Below, piece after piece: positions 1 to 11,174 of a DNA stretch of 60,126 bases. Position numbers and translations under genes: made by a program. The stretch's first letter is position 1, and each line of letters begins with the position of its first letter. Below the pieces are notes generated by a model. The model saw only the letters and a program-made list of their open reading frames with translations, searched no databases and was not told the DNA's origin. The stretch is taken from assembly GCA_036394595.1 (NCBI GenBank), contig DASWEU010000124.1, positions 1 through 60,126 of the forward strand, written 5' to 3'. Source of the stretch: Burkholderiales bacterium (GTDB taxonomy: Bacteria; Pseudomonadota; Gammaproteobacteria; Burkholderiales; SG8-39).

Positions 1-129
1 CCCGCCGCGCCAGCAGCCCCCGCTTCCACTTCACCGGCACCCGCCACCTCCGCGCACGCCCAGGACACGTTGGTGCAGGACGCACAATTGGCTCAGAACG
101 TCGCCGGCGAGGGTCGCAATCATGGGTGA
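1..129 (+). CDS. 3' end of an unidentified CDS entering from the left edge (Pro/Ala-rich C-terminus)
   Basis: Frame 1 is open from base 1 to TGA at 127-129 (PAAPAAPASTSPAPATSAHAQDTLVQDAQLAQNVAGEGRNHG*). GC is high like the core genome. No recognisable domain. Confidence 0.3.
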   Translation, partial: PAAPAAPASTSPAPATSAHAQDTLVQDAQLAQNVAGEGRNHG

Positions 130-187
130 ACAAGCAGTTCCGCGAACGCATCGAGAACGTCCCGCAATTCCTCCCCTTCCTTGACTC

Positions 188-721
188 TTGATATATGGGT
201 GTGATGTGGCCGTCAGGATGACGAAGCAGCAGCATCACCTTGATGCCCGTAGATCGAGTCCAAAGTTGAGAGAGTTTTGGCGACTCAACGCCTTTACGTC
301 GGAAAACATCATCGAGGCGGCTCTTGAGCATGCTGGGGGCTTGATGCCTGACGGAGAGTTCTCCCCCCTCTCCCTTCCCGTTGTGCTCGATCGGGTGGCG
401 CAAGCCATGGATGGGGCTGGCATGCAAACGCGCCTTGGCAAAGGGCGTGAGGACTATCAGGTGTGGGTGGAGATCGATGACATTAACCTTGCCAAGGAGA
501 TTGGCTGGTTCCGCTGGGGCTTCGGCGCGAAGATGAGTTTTCTATTCGCACTTAGGGTTTCTGGCGACCTGTCTTCGCACTGGAAGGATCAGCCGTCTGT
601 GCGGGTTGTGCTGCTGGAAGACGGCGACGGAATGCAGTTGATAGGTAAGCGTCGAGGCAAGTGTGTCTACGCCCCTAGGGAGGTCATTGTTTGGCGTGGC
701 GGTGTGATGGACCCGAAGTAG
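188..721 (+). CDS. hypothetical protein (islet gene A), no recognisable family
   Basis: ORF-track ORF with TTG at 188. In-frame GTG at 206 and ATG at 218 are alternative starts. No motif I can assign. GC is about 57% in hand-counted line 301-360, below the core genes. A short hairpin CCGTCC-CCG-GGACGG follows at 725-739. Confidence 0.5.
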   Translation: MIYGCDVAVRMTKQQHHLDARRSSPKLREFWRLNAFTSENIIEAALEHAGGLMPDGEFSPLSLPVVLDRVAQAMDGAGMQTRLGKGREDYQVWVEIDDINLAKEIGWFRWGFGAKMSFLFALRVSGDLSSHWKDQPSVRVVLLEDGDGMQLIGKRRGKCVYAPREVIVWRGGVMDPK

Positions 722-835
722 CGACCGTCCCCGGGACGGCGAGCGGACAGGGTGTATCGTCAGGCAAAGGAGCCTCGCGCCGAGATAATCAGTATGCCGT
801 CGAGGTTTAAAAAGTAACTTGGCGGGGAGGTCCTG

Positions 836-1390
836 CTGGAAAATCTAGAAGACCAACTTCGAGTAGAGCACCAAGTTCGAGAGGTCTACGCGCGATTCGG
901 GCTGACGATGTATCACGTGCAAGGGGTGGAACGTGAATTGGCGATGCTGCTCTGCACGGAGTTCGGGCCTGGATTGAAGAAGTTGACTCGGAGTGAACTC
1001 CGAAAGATGGTCGAGAGTAACAACCAGAAAACGTTCGGAACACTCGTCAAGAATTTGCGGAAGGTGATTAATGTTCCAGCCGATCTAGAGGCTCGATTGG
1101 GGAAGGCAGTGGATATTCGCAACGATCTTGCGCACGAATATTTTTGGGAGTGGGCTTACGAACTCACTACTTGGGAGGGCCGGGAGAAGATGATCGTGGA
1201 CTTAACAGAGGCCGCTGCGTTCTTGGAAACCTTAGACGAGGATTTGACGAACCTGAATGTAGCGTGGGCTAGACGTCATGGCATCACGGACAAGGGCCTT
1301 CAAAAACACGAACAGGAACTAATCGCCCGATTGAAAGCCAGCGGCGGCCCCAGGAAGTTAGGCGCGAGGCGTGGATCAAGAAAGGGGTAA
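836..1390 (+). CDS. HEPN-motif protein (putative RNase toxin/effector), islet gene B
   Basis: The ORF track gives 908-1390. It contains ..GKAVDIRNDLAHEYF.., an exact R-x4-H HEPN signature of the RNxxAH type, encoded at 1118-1135. The frame is open back to TAA 815-817 and reads as plausible protein (LENLEDQLRVEHQVREVYARFGLT). GGGGAGG at 824-830 lies 5 nt before an in-frame CTG at 836, so the 5' end is uncertain (836 or 908). GC is about 45% in hand-counted line 1021-1080. Confidence 0.6.
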   Translation: MENLEDQLRVEHQVREVYARFGLTMYHVQGVERELAMLLCTEFGPGLKKLTRSELRKMVESNNQKTFGTLVKNLRKVINVPADLEARLGKAVDIRNDLAHEYFWEWAYELTTWEGREKMIVDLTEAAAFLETLDEDLTNLNVAWARRHGITDKGLQKHEQELIARLKASGGPRKLGARRGSRKG

Positions 1391-1407
1391 TACCCCAAAA
1401 ATGGTCT

Positions 1408-2139
1408 ATGGCATTTGAGTGTTGGGCGTCGTGGCTGGGTGACTGCGAAGGTGGCCAGTCCCGAGAGCACTACATCAGCGCAAGCCTGTTCGCGCGTCGC
1501 GTGGAAGCACGAGGTTTCTCGTGGTGTCGCAATGAGTACAAAGCGATCGGGCTGAAAAGCGCAGTAGCGCGCATGCTGTGCAAGAAGCACAACCAAGCGC
1601 TTTCGCCATTCGACGCTGAAGCTGCAAAACTTAAAAACTTCTTAGTAGAAGAATTTTTAGAGAAGCCACAGGCGGATAACGCCATCAGAGTGAACGGCCA
1701 ACTCTTTGAGAGGTGGGCGCTCAAGACAATGATCAATCTCGGATTCGTGGAGGCGCTGGACCTTCAGCAAAGGAGCCAGCTACTGCCGCCGCCGCAAATT
1801 GTGGAGCATTTGTACCAAGGCGTCCGGAGAGGTAGAGGTGCGGGGCTGTACTACGTAGCCAGTTCCGTTGCAACGGAAAAACTCGAACGAGGGTTGTCGT
1901 GGCGCGCGGTCTCGGACGGCAATAACCCGCTCGCGATCGTTGGGATGACATTTATGTTCTTTGGGCTGCACTTCGTGTACATGCTTCCGGAGCGCCGAGC
2001 CGAAAAGAAGATTGCAGTTTGGGGTGAAGTTGATGGGATCAATTATTCAGCGGGAAAGATCACCTACCGTCCGCCCTTTATTCGCTACGCAAGTGGCGAT
2101 GGTGGCGGAACAAAGGTGATTAGATTTGATTGGCGCTGA
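1408..2139 (+). CDS. putative HNH_5-like His-Me-finger nuclease, islet gene C
   Basis: The N-terminus is C5..C13..SREH21YISASLF..C40RN42..LC58KKH61N62QALSPFD. This matches the pattern Cys..Cys..EH(I/V)x(P/S)xxL ... Asn ... (V/L)CxxCNxxLxxxD of HNH_5-type nucleases, with HN in place of CN. The C-terminal ~170 aa has no recognisable family. It starts 17 nt after gene B. GC is about 37% in hand-counted line 1621-1680. Confidence 0.5.
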   Translation: MAFECWASWLGDCEGGQSREHYISASLFARRVEARGFSWCRNEYKAIGLKSAVARMLCKKHNQALSPFDAEAAKLKNFLVEEFLEKPQADNAIRVNGQLFERWALKTMINLGFVEALDLQQRSQLLPPPQIVEHLYQGVRRGRGAGLYYVASSVATEKLERGLSWRAVSDGNNPLAIVGMTFMFFGLHFVYMLPERRAEKKIAVWGEVDGINYSAGKITYRPPFIRYASGDGGGTKVIRFDWR

Positions 2140-2142
2140 GAC

Positions 2143-2169
2143 GTAGCACGCGCGAACGCGAGGTGTTAC
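2143..2169 (+). terminator. imperfect hairpin after islet gene C (possible intrinsic terminator)
   Basis: GTAGCACGCGCG-aa-CGCGAGGTGTTAC starts 4 nt after the stop codon and is followed by GCTTTAAG. The stem has a mismatch and a G-T pair, and the T-tract is weak. Confidence 0.3.
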
Positions 2170-2361
2170 GCTTTAAGTGGCGTGCACAGGGGCGGCGGAC
2201 CTACTCAGTCGGGGTCCCCGTTCTGGTAGGGACTCCCCTTCCCTGCTAAGCGATTTTTCGGGTCTGACGCTGTGGGTAACTTCGCTATTGACCCGACATA
2301 CACATTGCACACCATATTCAATGCCCCTGGGACCTCAACCCGCCGCAAGTTCAAACCCCTG

Positions 2362-2562
2362 TCACTCTCCTTTTCGCCGGTGCCGGCTTGTCTCACTACT
2401 CTCGGTTTCCTGCCTCATTCGCTCGAATTTGATCAAAGAGATCGCCATCATGATGCGCTCCCTGTTCAATTCGTTCGTCGGGTAATCGAGCAAATACTGC
2501 AACTGTTCCTCGGCAGCTGCGAGCTTCGACAGAATCGGACCGCGTTTCGTTTTTTCGTCCAT
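2362..2562 (-). CDS. small hypothetical ORF (66 aa) in the islet tail; coding status doubtful
   Basis: Only an ORF-track ORF (MDEKTKRGPILSKLAAAEEQLQYLLDYPTNELNRERIMMAISLIKFE...). A perfect palindrome GGAAATTTCC at 2578-2587 lies 15 nt upstream of its ATG. No family recognised. Confidence 0.25.
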   Translation of the reverse strand: MDEKTKRGPILSKLAAAEEQLQYLLDYPTNELNRERIMMAISLIKFERMRQETESSETSRHRRKGE

Positions 2563-2697
2563 GCCTTACGAGTTGCAGGAAATTTCCTTTTTCGAGATTA
2601 TCAGTTGCCAAAACGAATCTCTGTCGTTGCACGTTGATTACTTGTAGTCCTTTTGGTCTACAGACGTAGCGTTTGGACTGAACTGTTCGCGCTCCTC

Positions 2698-4374
2698 CTA
2701 GCCACGCGACGCATAGAGCTGCCGGATCGGCTCTCCAAAACGCTGCTCGATCGCCGACCGCTTGATCTTCAGGGTCGGGGTCAGCAGGCCGTTCTCGACC
2801 GTCCAGGGTTCGACGCTGGCCCAGACTGCGCGCGGCGTGGCGTAGGACGGGAACTCCTTGAGCAGCTTCCCGAGGCGAGCCAGCAGGAATTTTCGGGCCG
2901 CCGGGGTATCGAGGGACCCGGCCTCGTGCCCCTTCAGGCCGAGCGCTGCCGCCTCGCGCAGCCAGGACTTGTGGTCCAGAACCGCCAGGGCCGCCAGGAA
3001 CGGCCGGTTCTCGCCGATGACGCAGACCTGCGCGAACAGCGGATCCATGCCGATGGCGAGTTCGAGGTCCGCAGGCGCGATCTTTTCGCCGCTGGAGGTG
3101 ACGATGATGTCCTTGATGCGTCCCTTGATCGAGATGCGGCCATCGTGGATCGCCGCCTGGTCGCCAGTATGCAGCCAGCCGCCCTCGATGGCGCGGGCCG
3201 TATCCTCAGGCCGATTGAGGTAGCCGACCATCACGTTCGGACCTTTCGCCTGCAATTCATCGTTGGCGCCGATTCGCACTTCGACGCCGGGAATCGGCCG
3301 TCCCACGGTCGCCAGGTCGTTATCGCCGGGTCGGTTGCAGCAGATGACCGGCGACGCTTCGGTCATGCCATAGCCTTGCAGGACCTCCATCCCCAGGCCG
3401 TCGAAGCGCCGGGCCACCGCGAGCGGCATGGCCGCGCCGCCGGTGACGGCGAAGCGCAGCCGGCCGCCGAATTGCGAGCGCAGCTTCCAGCCGACGAAAA
3501 GGTCGAGCACCGGCCAGCCCAGCCGCGCCACGAGGTTCTCCTGCAGCTTGGCGTAGATGCGCTCGTAGATGAGCGGCACGGAAACCAGGATGGTCGGGCG
3601 CACCTGGCGCAGGTCCTGCGCCAGGTCCTTCACCGAACGCGCATAGGCGACGCAGGAGCCGGCGGCGATCGGCAGGTAGTAGCCGACGGTGCGTTCGAAG
3701 GTGTGCGACAGCGGCAGGAATGAAAGGAAGAGGTCGCTGCTTCTGACCTCGACGATCTCCAGGATGGCCTGGACATTAGACACCACGTTGCGGTGGTTGA
3801 GCACCACCCCCTTGGGCCGCCCCGTGGTACCCGAGGTGTAGACGATGGCGGCGAGCGAATCCGGGGTGACGGCGGCAGGCGGAGCGTCGACCTCCCCGCC
3901 TTTTTGCAGCCACTCTTCCACCCAAACCGCACTACCCTCCTCCGGCTTTTCGAGGCACAGCACGCGCTTCAGCCCGGGAAATCGCTCGCGCATCGCGGTG
4001 AGCAATGTCCAGCGATGCGCGGATTCCACCAGGAGCAGCGCGGCGCCGCTGTCGCCCAGGATGTAGGCGATGCTTTCCGGATTGTCGATGGCATGCAAGG
4101 GCACCGGAACGAAGCCGAGCGAGAGCGCCGCCTGGTCCATGCAGAGGTGCTCGACGCAGCCGCGCGCGAGGATCGCGATGCGCGAACCGGCGGGCAGCGA
4201 TTCGCGCTGCAGCGCGCGGCGCCAGCGCTCGACGCTGTTGCCGAACTCGGCCCAGCTGTACGCCTGCCAGCGGCCGGCCGCGTGATCGTATTGCCGGTAC
4301 GCCGCGCCGTCCGGGGTGGCGGCGATGCGCTCGCGCAGAAGATCGGGAAGAGTCTTCACCGCGGCACGACGCAA
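2698..4374 (-). CDS. AMP-dependent synthetase/ligase (long-chain-fatty-acid--CoA ligase family)
   Basis: 558-aa ORF with the AMP-binding signature YTSGTTGRPKGV, plus TGD and GEKIAP motifs typical of acyl-CoA synthetases. Confidence 0.9.
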   Translation of the reverse strand: MRRAAVKTLPDLLRERIAATPDGAAYRQYDHAAGRWQAYSWAEFGNSVERWRRALQRESLPAGSRIAILARGCVEHLCMDQAALSLGFVPVPLHAIDNPESIAYILGDSGAALLLVESAHRWTLLTAMRERFPGLKRVLCLEKPEEGSAVWVEEWLQKGGEVDAPPAAVTPDSLAAIVYTSGTTGRPKGVVLNHRNVVSNVQAILEIVEVRSSDLFLSFLPLSHTFERTVGYYLPIAAGSCVAYARSVKDLAQDLRQVRPTILVSVPLIYERIYAKLQENLVARLGWPVLDLFVGWKLRSQFGGRLRFAVTGGAAMPLAVARRFDGLGMEVLQGYGMTEASPVICCNRPGDNDLATVGRPIPGVEVRIGANDELQAKGPNVMVGYLNRPEDTARAIEGGWLHTGDQAAIHDGRISIKGRIKDIIVTSSGEKIAPADLELAIGMDPLFAQVCVIGENRPFLAALAVLDHKSWLREAAALGLKGHEAGSLDTPAARKFLLARLGKLLKEFPSYATPRAVWASVEPWTVENGLLTPTLKIKRSAIEQRFGEPIRQLYASRG

Positions 4375-4382
4375 ATCGGCGG

Positions 4383-4850
4383 CTAGTTCAGGTTTTCCGG
4401 CTTGGGGACGGGCAGCCGGGCGACGGGGATGCCTTCGTCGATCAGCTCGTCGTGCTCGGCCTGGGTGGCCTGGCCGCGGATGGCGCGCGCGGGCGCCTGG
4501 TCGTAGAAGATCTTGCGGGCTTCAGTCGGAAATTCCTTGCCGACGTCCTCGCTCTTGGTGAGGAGCTCGTCAAGCATGCTCGAGTAAAGCATCTGGGCGA
4601 TGGCGAACGGATCCTTGCCTTCCATCGCGGGCGTCTTGGCGGGTGCCTTCGCCACCGGCTTCGGGGCTTCCTGAGGCGGTTGCGTGCCGAAATTGGCGCG
4701 GGTCGCGGACGGCACGCGCTCGACGCTGACCGTACTGCAGGTGGGGCAGGCAAGCAGGCGCCGCTTCTTCTGGGAGGCGAAGTCTTCCGCCGAATTGAAC
4801 CACCCCTCGAAACGGTGGCCGCCGGCGCAGAGCAGGTCGAATACGATCAT
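4383..4850 (-). CDS. DUF1178 family protein
   Basis: MIVFDLLCAGGHRFEGWFNSAEDFASQKKRRLLACPTCS matches the DUF1178 N-terminal zinc-ribbon-like pattern. The start is placed at the ATG at 4850 rather than the ORF-track 4949. Confidence 0.75.
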   Translation of the reverse strand: MIVFDLLCAGGHRFEGWFNSAEDFASQKKRRLLACPTCSTVSVERVPSATRANFGTQPPQEAPKPVAKAPAKTPAMEGKDPFAIAQMLYSSMLDELLTKSEDVGKEFPTEARKIFYDQAPARAIRGQATQAEHDELIDEGIPVARLPVPKPENLN

Positions 4851-4866
4851 CTGCACCGATTCTACA

Positions 4867-5607
4867 ATGGCGGGCATGACCCCCCTCTTCTTCCTGCACG
4901 GCGTCAGCGGCGGCAACAGCGCCTGGGACCGGCAGGTGGCGCATTTCACGAAGCTTGGCTATCGCTGCACGTCCTGGGACCAGCCGGGCTACGGGAAAAA
5001 CCCTGCGGTCGACCCCTACAACCTCGAGAACGTCGCCGCGGCGCTGAGAAAACTCGTTGGCGATGAAAAGGCTGTCCTCGTCGGCCACAGCATGGGCGGG
5101 CTGATCGCGCAGGAGTTCTACGCGCGCTATCCGGAAAGCGTCGCTGCCCTCGCCCTCTGCTTCACCAGCGCCGCCTTCGTCGGCGGCAGCGAGTTCTCCA
5201 ATCAGTTCGTCGAGCAGCGCATCGGTCCGCTCGATCGCGGCGAGACCATGGCCCAGCTTGCGCAGCGGCTGATGCCGGCGGCGCGCGGGCGCATCTCGGA
5301 CGAGAAAGGCTTTGAGCTGGCGGTGCGAATGATGGCGGCGCTATCGCCGGAGACCTACCGCAAGGCGGTCCATCTGTTGACGACCTTCGACCGGCGCGCC
5401 GAGCTGCCGAAAATCGCCGTCCCTACCCTGCTCGTTGCCGGCAGCGACGACACCACCGCTCCGGCGCGGCTGATGGCGCGCATGGCGGAAAAAATTCCCG
5501 GCGCCGAGCTGGTGGTGCTGGACGGCGCCGGGCACCTCGGTCCGATGGACCAGCCCGAGCGCTTCAACGCCGCGCTGGCGGGGTTCCTCGCCCGCCGCAA
5601 GCTATAG
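4867..5607 (+). CDS. alpha/beta hydrolase
   Basis: LFFLHGVSGG near the N-terminus and a GHSMGG nucleophile elbow. The start is placed at ATG 4867 (MAGMTPLFFLHG). The upstream part of the ORF-track ORF overlaps the divergent DUF1178 gene. Confidence 0.85.
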   Translation: MAGMTPLFFLHGVSGGNSAWDRQVAHFTKLGYRCTSWDQPGYGKNPAVDPYNLENVAAALRKLVGDEKAVLVGHSMGGLIAQEFYARYPESVAALALCFTSAAFVGGSEFSNQFVEQRIGPLDRGETMAQLAQRLMPAARGRISDEKGFELAVRMMAALSPETYRKAVHLLTTFDRRAELPKIAVPTLLVAGSDDTTAPARLMARMAEKIPGAELVVLDGAGHLGPMDQPERFNAALAGFLARRKL

Positions 5608-5615
5608 TTAGGCGC

Positions 5616-6914
5616 ATGGGCAGGTATCGCGAAGACCCGCTGGCGATTGCAAGGCTGGTCGAGGACGACCGCGTGCACCGCGACGTCTACACCGACCCGG
5701 AAGTGTTCGCGCTGGAGATGGAGCGGCTGTGGTCACGCTCCTGGATCTACGTCGGCCATGCGAGCCAGGTGCCGCAGGCCGGCGACTTCATCACGCTCGA
5801 CATCGCGGCGAAGCCGGTGCTCATGGTGCGCCAGGCCGACGGCGGCATCCGCCTGATGATGAACCGCTGCGCCCACAAGGGCACCAAGGTGGTGAACGCG
5901 CCCTCGGGCAACGCCGGCAAGACTTTCCGTTGCCCCTACCACGCCTGGACCTACCGCCTCGACGGCTCGCTCGCGATGATTCCATTGAAAGAAGGCTATG
6001 CCGGCACGCGGCTGAACGAAACTGGCTTATCCGAAATAAAAAATCTCTCCATTTACCGTGGATTCGTCTTCGTTCGTCTCTCCGAAAAAGGCATGGGCTT
6101 CAAGGAATTCTTCGGCGACTCGCTCTCCTCCATCGACAATCTCGCCGACCGCTCACCGCAGGGCGAGCTGGAGCTCACCGGCGGCTGCCTGCGCTACCTG
6201 CACAACTGCAACTGGAAGATGTTCGTCGAGAACCTCAACGACACCATGCATCCGATGATCGCCCACGCCTCCTCGGCCGGCACGGCGAAGCGACTGTGGG
6301 AAGGACAGCCGGCGGACAAGCCCAAGCCGATGGCGGTCGAGCAGTTCGTGCCCTTCGTCAATGGCTACCCGTTCTTCGACGAAATGGGCGTCAAGGTCTA
6401 CCCGCACGGCCACGGCTTTTCCGGCGTGCACTTCTCGATCCACTCGGCCTACTCGCCGATCAAGGAGTACGAGGCCGCGATGCGCAAGGCCTACGGCGAG
6501 CAGCGCGCCAAGCAGATCCTCGGCACCGTGCGCCACAACACGGTCTACTTCCCCAGCCTGACCATCAAGGGCGCCATCCAGTCGATCCGCGTGGCGCGGC
6601 CGCTGGCCGCCGACAGGACGCTGATCGAGTCCTGGACCTTTCGCCTGAAGGGCGCGCCCGACAGCCTGCTCGCGCGCACCGTGATGTACAACCGGCTGAT
6701 CAATTCACCCATGTCGGTAGTCGGCCACGACGACCTGCACTGCTACCGCTCCATCCAGGAGGGATTGGCGGCTTCCGGAAATGAATGGGTAAATCTTCAA
6801 AGAAACTTTTCTGAAAAAGAATTGAGCTCACCTGAGTTCGTCGGCAACGGCACCAGCGACGTCTCGATGCGCAACCAATTCCGCGCCTGGCGCGAACTCA
6901 TGTCGGCGGAATGA
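5616..6914 (+). CDS. aromatic ring-hydroxylating dioxygenase, alpha (Rieske) subunit
   Basis: Rieske motif CAHKG...CPYHAWTY, followed by a catalytic domain with conserved His residues (NDTMHPMIAH). Confidence 0.9.
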   Translation: MGRYREDPLAIARLVEDDRVHRDVYTDPEVFALEMERLWSRSWIYVGHASQVPQAGDFITLDIAAKPVLMVRQADGGIRLMMNRCAHKGTKVVNAPSGNAGKTFRCPYHAWTYRLDGSLAMIPLKEGYAGTRLNETGLSEIKNLSIYRGFVFVRLSEKGMGFKEFFGDSLSSIDNLADRSPQGELELTGGCLRYLHNCNWKMFVENLNDTMHPMIAHASSAGTAKRLWEGQPADKPKPMAVEQFVPFVNGYPFFDEMGVKVYPHGHGFSGVHFSIHSAYSPIKEYEAAMRKAYGEQRAKQILGTVRHNTVYFPSLTIKGAIQSIRVARPLAADRTLIESWTFRLKGAPDSLLARTVMYNRLINSPMSVVGHDDLHCYRSIQEGLAASGNEWVNLQRNFSEKELSSPEFVGNGTSDVSMRNQFRAWRELMSAE

Positions 6915-7381
6915 AGCGCGTCACTGAAAAGGACCTGGTGAAGTTCGTGGTGCAGGAGGCGCGCCTTCTCGACGAGAAGCGCTTCGACGAGTGGTATGAC
7001 CTGTTCGCCGACGACGGTTTCTACTGGGTGCCAGCGGTGTACGGCCAAAAAGACGCTCACCTTGAGAACTCGCTTGCCTACGAGGACAAGTTCCTGCTCA
7101 AACTCCGCGTCGAGCGCCTGAAGACTCCGAATGCATTCTCACAGCAGCCGGCAAGCCGCTGTCACCATCTGCTGCAGACTCCCGCAGTCGAAAATCTTCG
7201 TGAAATGAAACTGCGCACGGCATTTATCTACACCGAAACCCGGGGCGACGAATCACAGCGCTACGCCGCAACCGCCTGGCATACGCTGGTCCAGAAGAAA
7301 GGCGCCCTGCGCATCAAGCTCAAGCGCGTGGACCTCCTGAACTGCGATGCCATGCTGCCGTCGATCCAGCTCTTCCCGTGA
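6911..7381 (+). CDS. aromatic ring-hydroxylating dioxygenase, beta subunit (NTF2-like)
   Basis: FVVQEARLLDEKRFDEWYDLFADDGFYWVP is typical of RHO small subunits. It has an ATGA overlap with the alpha subunit stop. Confidence 0.85.
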   Translation: MKRVTEKDLVKFVVQEARLLDEKRFDEWYDLFADDGFYWVPAVYGQKDAHLENSLAYEDKFLLKLRVERLKTPNAFSQQPASRCHHLLQTPAVENLREMKLRTAFIYTETRGDESQRYAATAWHTLVQKKGALRIKLKRVDLLNCDAMLPSIQLFP

Positions 7382-8094
7382 GCGTCGCGCTCGTCACCGG
7401 CGGCAGCGCGGGCATCGGGCTGGCGGTTGTGAAAAGCCTGCTCGAGCGCGGCGATGAAGTCATTTCGCTCGACATTCAACCGGCCGGGGTTTCTCACCAG
7501 AACCTTCACCACATGAAGGTCGATCTGACGAAACCGGATGAAACAGAAAAAGCTTCTGCGAACCTGAAAAGCAAAAAAATCACCACCGTAATTCATAACG
7601 CCGGCGTCATCCGCCCTGCCCTGCTCCCCGATGTGAAGCTCGAGGACTTCGACGCGCTGGTGAACCTGCACCTCAAGGCGGCGATCACGCTGGTGCAGGC
7701 GGCGCTGCCGGCGATGAAGGCCGAAGGCTACGGCCGCGTGGTGCTGGTGTCCTCGCGCGCCGTGCTGGGATTGCCGACGCGCACCTCGTACTCGGCGACC
7801 AAGGCCGGCATGCTCGGCATGGCGCGCACCTGGGCGCTGGAGCTCGCGCCCTTGGGCATCACGGTCAACGTGGTGGCGCCCGGGCCGGTGCGCACGGCGA
7901 ATTTCCACAGCGTGATCCCCGAGGGCAGCGCGCAGGTCGAGAAGGTCGCGCAGGCCATCCCCGTGAAACGGCTGGGCGAGCCGGAGGATGCGGCACGCGC
8001 CGTGATGTTCTTCGCCGCGCGCGACGCGGGCTTCATCACCGGCCAAGTGCTCTATGTCTGCGGCGGCACCAGCGTCGGCACGCTGACGCTGTAA
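7378..8094 (+). CDS. SDR family oxidoreductase
   Basis: VTGGSAGIGLA dinucleotide-binding motif and YSATKAG catalytic motif. The GTG start overlaps the preceding stop (GTGA). Confidence 0.9.
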   Translation: MSVALVTGGSAGIGLAVVKSLLERGDEVISLDIQPAGVSHQNLHHMKVDLTKPDETEKASANLKSKKITTVIHNAGVIRPALLPDVKLEDFDALVNLHLKAAITLVQAALPAMKAEGYGRVVLVSSRAVLGLPTRTSYSATKAGMLGMARTWALELAPLGITVNVVAPGPVRTANFHSVIPEGSAQVEKVAQAIPVKRLGEPEDAARAVMFFAARDAGFITGQVLYVCGGTSVGTLTL

Positions 8095-8116
8095 TCGGAA
8101 CGCTGACGCTTAGGGC

Positions 8117-10249
<2,133 letters not shown>

Positions 10250-10268
10250 GTCACTAGAATACCAAGCA

Positions 10269-11174
10269 ATGGAACCCTGGTCTTTCGATTCGCAGGTCGA
10301 TCCGCAGGCGTTCGCCGCGCTCGGCTACGCGCTCAGCTCCGCCGGCATCGCCAAGCGCCAGCGCGAGTACCGCGAGGGCTGGTGGGCGCACGCCGAGCGC
10401 AGCAAGGCCTTCATCATGAACGCGGCGATACGCGCGCGCGGCCGCAAGCTGGCGGTGTTGCTGGGCGCGGGCAAGGCCTACGACCTGCCGCTCGCCGAGC
10501 TGGCGAAAGGCTTCGAGCGCATCGTGCTGGTCGACATCGACGCCGACGCGCTCGCCGCGACCATCGCCGCCGCCGTGCCCGAGGCGGCGCTGCGCCGCAA
10601 GTTCGAACCTTGCGCGATGGATCTCACCGGCGTTTGCGCTCGCCTGGCGCGCGAAATTCAATCGTCGAACTCCTATGAAGAGCTTTGCGCTTCCTACCGG
10701 CTGGCGAGCCCTCCCCGTCTCGTCCCCGGCGCGGAGCGCGCGGACCTGCTGGTCTCCGCGCTGGTGCTGACGCAGCTTGCGCTGCCGGCAAAGCTGCTGG
10801 CGCGCGACGTATACGAAAAAAAGCATGGCCCGGTCGGCCGCGGCCCGGAACCGGCCTGGGTGAAGGCCTTCGACCAGCTCGACTTGCGCATGCAGCAGGA
10901 TCACATCGACGCGCTGAACGGTCAGGCGGAGCTTGCGGTCCTGACCTCGGAAGTCATGCACCACATCACCCGCTTTGTCCCAGGCGGCGCCGATCGGCTG
11001 ACGGGCGAATCATGGTCGCTGATCGGCGCGGCGACGCTCGATGAGCGCGTATCGGCGTCACAGGAAATCGTGGCGAGCAGCAGTTGGGGCTGGCCGCGGA
11101 TCCGGGCGAACGCGCAGGGGCCGGGCGCGAGGATGGACGTCGGGGCGGTCGCGCTGCGCGCGCGCAGCGGCTAG
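10269..11174 (+). CDS. hypothetical protein with Rossmann/class-I-methyltransferase-like motifs
   Basis: 301-aa ORF with core-like GC. It contains AVLLGAGKAYDLPL...IVLVDIDADAL...ADLLVSALVLTQL, which resemble MTase motifs I/II/IV. No family recognised with certainty. Confidence 0.55.
   Translation: MEPWSFDSQVDPQAFAALGYALSSAGIAKRQREYREGWWAHAERSKAFIMNAAIRARGRKLAVLLGAGKAYDLPLAELAKGFERIVLVDIDADALAATIAAAVPEAALRRKFEPCAMDLTGVCARLAREIQSSNSYEELCASYRLASPPRLVPGAERADLLVSALVLTQLALPAKLLARDVYEKKHGPVGRGPEPAWVKAFDQLDLRMQQDHIDALNGQAELAVLTSEVMHHITRFVPGGADRLTGESWSLIGAATLDERVSASQEIVASSSWGWPRIRANAQGPGARMDVGAVALRARSG

Follow-up and report, generated by a model that had tools for sequence, protein, structure and literature searches.

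A compositionally foreign islet in a Burkholderiales contig joins a probable HEPN-like gene with a member of a large uncharacterised protein family

Do closely spaced genes in a foreign islet form a system, or have they come to lie side by side from separate sources? The question is raised by a 60,126-nucleotide (nt) stretch of DNA from a Burkholderiales bacterium of the SG8-39 lineage (GenBank assembly GCA_036394595.1, contig DASWEU010000124.1, positions 1–60,126 of the forward strand), referred to here at its full length as the window. Near its left end is an islet (positions 130–2697) that carries three co-oriented open reading frames (ORFs), here called A, B and C. In a preliminary description of this DNA, B was taken for a HEPN ribonuclease (RNase) and C for an HNH nuclease, and the trio, or at least B with C, was proposed to be a single mobile defence or toxin module. 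The explanation that we favour, held at about even confidence, is that the islet is a horizontally acquired mosaic of independently mobile single-gene cassettes, with no co-evolved three-gene system in it. In this mosaic B would be a solo effector, probably an RNase of HEPN type, and C a solo uncharacterised protein that is probably zinc-binding and possibly nucleolytic.

The foreign composition of the islet, part of the earlier proposal, is borne out. Its guanine-plus-cytosine (GC) content is 54.2%, against 65.9% for positions 2698–60126, and none of the other 1-kb bins of the window (61 in total) is as low as its three (0.58, 0.54 and 0.57). GC at third codon positions (GC3) is 66.7% in A, 60.0% in B, 61.1% in C and 67.2% in the small ORF D, compared with 85.5–86.8% in four neighbouring core genes, and the earlier hand counts of single lines proved exact on recounting (56.7, 45.0, 36.7 and 68.3%). 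The gene layout also stands, with A at 188–721, B in a frame open from 818 to a stop at 1390, and C at 1408–2139, all co-oriented, and 17 nt between B and C; what had been overlooked is the fourth islet ORF, D. Nor does the islet contain or border on the usual signs of mobility, as had been stated and as the tRNA, Pfam and repeat searches confirm: the closest tRNA gene is 11.2 kb away, the islet ORFs gave no match to integrase or transposase domains, no direct or inverted repeats convincingly bracket it, no attC-like sites or terminal repeats were found inside it, and positions 1–5000 gave no Rfam match. The islet has the composition of horizontally acquired DNA and none of the mobility signatures sought (integrase, insertion sequence (IS) element, tRNA target, direct repeats and attC).

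Whether A, B and C belong together can be asked of the loci in which their relatives occur. We searched the fetched loci, 88 of the C family and seven B contexts, with hidden Markov models (HMMs) for the three families; for one further B context, the eighth (L193), only the annotation was consulted. Neither the B-family nor the A-family HMM matched anything in the 88 C-family loci, and the C-family HMM matched nothing in the seven B contexts, so that among the loci examined the B and C families co-occur in this islet only. Upstream sequence of more than 600 nt, in which a B-like gene would be located, is available in 51 of the 81 C loci scanned for context. PADLOC assigns A–D to no known system, and a literature search for the accessions of B and C homologues returned no match.

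These results bear on the possibility that B and C, with or without A, make up a single, hitherto undescribed module for defence or toxicity, recently put together as a young composite; a pair of RNase and DNase effectors that are co-regulated or mutually restrained would be an example. Such a module would account for the shared orientation, the 17-nt gap and the common foreign composition, and both B and C retain every residue that is invariant in their families. It also draws on a resemblance between the C-terminal 35 residues of A (581–685) and the C-terminal domain of the longer B-family proteins described below, with an hhalign score of 21.4, a value that 2 out of 200 shuffles of the columns attained; A and B may, on this resemblance, be a split two-domain protein. 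As the similarity was first noticed by eye, and is thus post hoc, and as it is statistically marginal, we treat it as a lead only. Set against the module are the lack of any B–C, A–B or A–C pairing in the eight B contexts and 88 C-family loci, and the fact that both families are proven solo units, one as an integron cassette and the other as single genes between housekeeping genes. We therefore consider the single-module explanation quite unlikely, and the earlier proposal is not upheld in this respect. Tight adjacency in a foreign islet is, here, no evidence of a system.

The relatives of B are consistent with the mosaic of solo genes. A word-indexed homology search returned 16 of them, most of 281–295 amino acids (aa) and from Acidobacteria-type metagenomes. 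These long proteins are composed of a domain of about 165 aa at the N-terminus, corresponding to B, and a further one of about 110 aa at the C-terminus, absent from B, which gives weak FRG1/FGF-like (β-trefoil) matches. Found on plasmids, by comparison, are solo relatives of 149–182 aa, and on their evidence we regard the short architecture of B as normal and able to work on its own. The cassette is located on the Vibrio alginolyticus plasmid NZ_CP054704 (L193:5793–6594), where the B-family gene is the single gene between repeats of about 125 nt that resemble attC sites or Vibrio cholerae repeats; the same array carries abortive-infection (Abi), RelE/RelB, PIN and restriction-endonuclease cassettes. 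In Candidatus Tenderia and Sinorhizobium the B-family gene is located between transposases or IS elements, in Vibrio it directly follows QatABCD, and in Emticicia its place is behind the genes of an ATPase/RloB pair, with KwaB nearby. The defence or mobile setting that had been suggested for the islet genes thus holds for the short homologues of B, which adjoin Qat, ATPase/RloB with KwaB, IS elements and integron cassettes of Abi, toxin–antitoxin (TA) and restriction-endonuclease type.

A different arrangement was observed for the long B-family proteins (about 285 aa). In two acidobacterial lineages they are encoded immediately downstream of a 1143-aa NERD-domain protein (L008:4558–8864 and L012:2281–6709), and the flanks of the pair differ by lineage, with SLFN_AlbA_2 and kinase genes in one and SMC_N/AAA_23 genes in the other. 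Judging by this arrangement, the NERD protein and the long B-family protein may constitute an undescribed two-gene module.

A HEPN core is a four-helix, up-and-down, all-α assembly with the conserved motif at the end of helix 3. The AlphaFold2 (AF2) model of B is all-helical with long helices (predicted local distance difference test score (pLDDT) of 76), and the motif, encoded by the codons for R-N-D-L-A-H at 1118–1135 on the plus strand, is situated inside the helix of residues 88–115. Within the motif, written R-N-x-L-x-H for the family, the Arg, Asn, Leu and His are invariant in 21 B-family sequences (25–45% identity), as is an acidic residue in helix 1. The exact R-x4-H motif noted earlier is therefore present and family-invariant, and the RNDLAH of B agrees with the definition of HEPN proteins by Rx4-6H in which the Arg is followed by a polar N, D or H, together with an acidic residue further upstream (PMC3710099). 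Matches of the B family to HEPN models are of sub-threshold strength in Pfam (HEPN_RiboL-PSP, 4.7e-4; HEPN_Apea, 0.023; HepT-like, 0.032; DUF4145, 0.052), NCBIfam (HepT, 0.11) and PADLOC (Cas13-ApeA, 0.01; CARF_HEPN, 0.021), and unrelated helical families match with similar weight. A search of Protein Data Bank (PDB) sequence profiles with the B alignment gave noise only. Across Pfam, NCBIfam, PADLOC and PHROGs, the only significant match for any of A–D is that of B to phrog_12893 (2.7e-8), the function of which is unannotated; tblastn of B against phages and a scan of viral contigs with the B alignment found nothing. The assignment of B to HEPN thus draws on the invariant motif; the all-helical model and the weak profile matches are consistent with it, and we take B to belong, probably, to a HEPN-like family that is new.

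As a small, all-helical protein with an invariant R-N-x-x-x-H, B resembles both HepT of the HepT-MntA system and Esos, a validated single-gene, HEPN-like defence system found as an integron cassette in V. cholerae (bioRxiv 10.1101/2024.07.02.601686). With Esos it shares, in addition, a homologue that is itself a single-gene integron cassette, the comparison being one of description and not of sequence. The sub-threshold profile matches point to the HepT, ApeA and RiboL-PSP models, none of them at the curated cut-off. B differs from HepT-MntA in having no MNT antitoxin partner, and from both Esos and HepT in that its closest relatives carry the extra C-terminal domain and adjoin the NERD protein. 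By analogy with other small HEPN proteins, B would act as a dimer in which two R-N-x-x-x-H motifs form a metal-independent RNase site, and this site would serve a growth-arresting or abortive-infection effector.

The start of B (836–1390, plus strand), a short solo member of its unannotated family, deserves comment. The position given earlier, about 836, and the frame are correct, and the codon there is CTG and not a canonical start. In the frame of B, a mini-ORF (794–817, plus strand; MPSRFKK and a stop) directly precedes the open frame, which begins at 818, and no ATG, GTG or TTG occurs between the stop at 815–817 and position 908. Within this interval is a Shine–Dalgarno-like GGAGG (826–830, plus strand), followed by two in-frame CTG codons (833 and 836), the second of them 5 nt after it. 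Codons 875–907 (REVYA-FGL) encode residues that are invariant or nearly so across the B family, and a start at ATG 908 would remove these invariant residues of helix 1. Translation most likely begins at CTG 836, downstream of the GGAGG; alternatively, the start of B has been lost. Two origins are conceivable for the mini-ORF, either as a leader peptide followed by reinitiation or as the result of a nonsense mutation within what was once an extension at the N-terminus. The gene model of the source record is 150 aa long and shortened on the N-terminal side (window 836–937).

The same features could be those of a decaying mobile-element remnant in which B is startless and truncated, A and D are degenerate and nothing is functional. 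The lack of an ATG, GTG or TTG before the conserved helix 1, with an in-frame ATG at 794 that runs into a TAA at 815, would be expected of such a remnant, as would the extra domain in the closest homologues of B (281–295 aa), the count of one homologue for A and none for D, and the absence of mobility genes from the islet. Decay is difficult to reconcile, however, with the strong GGAGG placed 5 nt before the in-frame CTG 836, with solo B-family proteins of 149–182 aa being common, and with A, B and C being uninterrupted, of full family length and intact in their invariant residues. We give little credence to a remnant, and return to the mosaic of intact solo genes in considering C.

ORF C (1408–2139, plus strand) encodes 243 aa and belongs to a large, uncharacterised family whose members are about 250 aa long. 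A word-indexed search returned only six relatives; an exhaustive profile search returned 2,940 clusters (at 50% identity) at E≤1e-3 and 2,283 at E≤1e-10, the 150 best matches being mostly full-length proteins of about 250 aa. Among 94 aligned members C5, A7, C13, W39, L57, C58, H61, N62, D69 and K106 are invariant, and W6, G11, S18, E20, H21, G36, L65, E101, W103 and others are conserved in at least 90%. The pattern of C5, C13, E20-H21, C58 and H61-N62 reported earlier is thus present and conserved. Together with W39 and D69 it makes up a Cys/His-rich N-terminal module (1420–1614, plus strand) that is predicted to bind zinc. The 188-aa model of C in the source record omits the first 55 codons (1408–1572), and with them the invariant C5 and C13 and the pair E20-H21. 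Searches with C-family patterns were run with alignment A2, as alignment A4 was too divergent.

Does this module make C an HNH or His-Me finger nuclease? In the ββα-metal fold of a His-Me finger, strand 1 ends in the catalytic His and the helix contributes a metal ligand (PMC5714182). C is similar to the His-Me finger in its pattern, C-x7-C, E-H, C-x2-H-N and D in that order, and in a predicted β-hairpin followed by helices around the pattern; at the motif level only, the family combines a conserved His with an Asn, His or Asp and a Cys-rich zinc site. It differs in that E20-H21 precedes the predicted hairpin rather than ending strand 1, in a part of the model that is of low confidence. In the AF2 model of C (pLDDT 78; predicted template modelling score (pTM) 0.82), residues 1–22 fall below a pLDDT of 50, E20-H21 lies upstream of a hairpin (31–34 and 45–48), helices carrying C58, H61 and N62 follow, and the C-terminal half is β-rich. 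No HNH family of Pfam was matched by C of the window (E≤1), by the 94 full-length members (E≤0.01) or by 35 isolated N-terminal domains (E≤10); Pfam, NCBIfam and PADLOC recognise none of the 94 members, PDB sequence profiles searched with the C alignments gave noise only and no HNH, and Foldseek of the model against the PDB returned nothing at E≤0.001 and no His-Me structure. The assignment of C to HNH_5 or His-Me fingers accordingly finds no profile or structural support and is left with the motif pattern. The spacing of C5, C13 and C58-x2-H61, the last pair opening the helix after the hairpin, resembles a treble-clef zinc site. Another candidate, a PD-(D/E)xK site formed by D69, E101 and K106, was rejected, E101 and K106 being on a predicted helix.

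A working picture of C can nevertheless be drawn. In the N-terminal module, C5, C13, C58 and H61 are the most likely zinc ligands; E20, H21, N62 and D69 may, with these four, form a metal-dependent nuclease site, a hypothetical role for the module; and the β-rich C-terminal half would recognise the target.

The distribution of the C family is broad, extending to plasmids of four phyla-level groups and to mycobacteriophages. Gene contexts were scanned at 81 of the 88 loci, 80 metagenomic and one viral, and no neighbour family recurs among them. Housekeeping enzymes dominate a Pfam census of 149 neighbouring ORFs, in which mobile-element domains are few, and the upstream neighbours that are co-oriented within 60 nt (15 of 58) are mutually unrelated. 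The first three contexts adjoin a type I restriction–modification (RM) system, a group of Mrr_cat, PIN and resolvase genes, and a gene for a NYN-domain protein, and plasmid-borne members are found among transposases and TA systems. With neighbours that are mostly housekeeping genes, the defence-island setting proposed earlier is inconsistent for C. On the evidence of these neighbourhoods C is best described as solitary and as moving independently of other genes.

Solitary movement of this kind could also be that of a free-standing, homing-type selfish endonuclease inserting between conserved genes, with A, B and D as unrelated passengers. The interval between terminase and portal is a typical site for a free-standing homing-endonuclease gene in phages, and it is there that mycobacteriophages Mao1, Sejanus and Mask encode a protein with a C-type N-terminal domain. 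The patchy occurrence of C as a solitary gene, mostly between housekeeping genes and with no conserved partner at the 81 loci, would be expected of such an element as well. The profile and structure searches detected no nuclease in C, however, and the three first contexts, with their RM, Mrr, and PIN or NYN genes, also fit a role in defence. We judge a homing endonuclease to be very unlikely. The phage protein itself, encoded by gene 3 of Mao1 (L105:1727–2920), is a 397-aa hypothetical protein in which the N-terminal domain of the C family occurs alongside a SEC-C zinc motif, and Sejanus and Mask match at the same position. As a likeness to HNH and His-Me enzymes, the location of this homologue between terminase and portal stands beside the residue pattern. 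A search of BFVD with the C model had a single match, to one uncharacterised phage protein.

Several observations weigh against the mosaic of active solo genes that we prefer. The co-orientation of B and C and the 17-nt gap between them look operonic, and unrelated adjacent defence genes can cooperate in the absence of conserved linkage. The islet itself has no attC, IS element, integrase or direct repeats, and its recent insertion is deduced from composition alone, in the sequence of what is one strain. For B, no HEPN model is matched at its curated threshold, and Foldseek of the AF2 model against the PDB gave nothing at E≤0.001, its top matches including no HEPN structure; with neither a canonical start nor the extra C-terminal domain found in the long proteins closest to it, B could be inactive. 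For C, searches of the PDB and BFVD assign no enzymatic fold. Compared with defence islands and integron cassette arrays of single-gene defence systems, the islet shows both likenesses and differences: it is small and foreign and carries nuclease-like genes with no mobility genes, and the neighbours of the B family include Qat, Kiwa, the ATPase/RloB pair, Abi, TA and restriction-endonuclease genes; unlike these arrays, it has no attC, integrase or known defence gene in or beside it, and the neighbours of C are mostly housekeeping genes.

A bolder proposal would join the families after all. The C proteins would be widespread solo zinc-dependent nucleases with a new fold arrangement, acting as single-gene anti-phage or selfish endonucleases, and in this islet one of them would have been newly joined with the solo HEPN RNase B, translated from its CTG, and possibly with A as a split-off, sensor-like domain, to form a young composite module. 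We think this unlikely.

Should B and C prove active, two unannotated families would join the pool of small single-gene conflict effectors. The more valuable lead is C, of which thousands of clusters occur on plasmids, phages and chromosomes and which is named by no curated library; this family merits a structure and an activity assay.

The remaining ORFs of the islet, A and D, are orphans. A (218–721, plus strand) encodes 167 aa if translation begins at ATG 218; with TTG 188 as the start (188–721) the product has 177 aa. Its one homologue, of 46% identity, is on a 1.3-kb contig and adjoins a gene with a faint RepSA match. Since this homologue aligns from residue 20, A starts at one of these two codons and not at ATG 344, from which some gene calls derive a model of 125 aa that is too short. 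D (2362–2562, minus strand) encodes 66 aa from an ATG, has 51.7% GC and appears among the gene-finder predictions for other assemblies. No homologues of D were found, and tblastn of A and D against plasmids gave none.

The borders of the islet can be placed with the help of identical copies. The window sequence is 100% identical in three other assemblies over up to 10.7 kb, and all islet-bearing contigs beyond the window are such copies. One of them, L100, reaches 147 nt further left than the window. In this contig the plus-strand frame that ends at window position 129 is interrupted by stop codons upstream, and the minus-strand frame is open and hydrophobic (grand average of hydropathicity 0.96), with a GC3 of 0.84 and a GTG start at window position 40. 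By these frames the islet is flanked on the left by the 5′ end of a minus-strand gene (1–40, with the GTG at 40–38) for a protein with the hydrophobic N-terminus of a membrane protein, and on the right by the 3′ end of a minus-strand core gene for an AMP-binding acyl-CoA ligase (2698–4374, stop codon 2698–2700), identified by domain search. The convergent slot of the preliminary description is contradicted by this sole extension of the left flank, in which the left gene is divergent from A, and the immediate left flank is core-like. To the left of about position 6, the window and contig L102 diverge from L100, and none of the contigs compared reaches more than about 150 nt beyond the left end of the window. 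Among 80 genome loci that encode homologues of the ligase, none offers an orthologous slot: the best homologue is 55% identical and non-syntenic, and no locus has the other flanking genes of the window.

To the right of the islet and its flanking ligase gene, positions 4383–10400 constitute a neighbourhood of core genes for the catabolism of aromatic compounds. It encodes a DUF1178 protein, an α/β hydrolase, the α and β subunits of a Rieske dioxygenase, a short-chain dehydrogenase, an FAA hydrolase, 3-HAO and an esterase. Beyond it, at 11.2–11.5 kb, is a cluster of tRNA genes for Leu, Cys and Gly.

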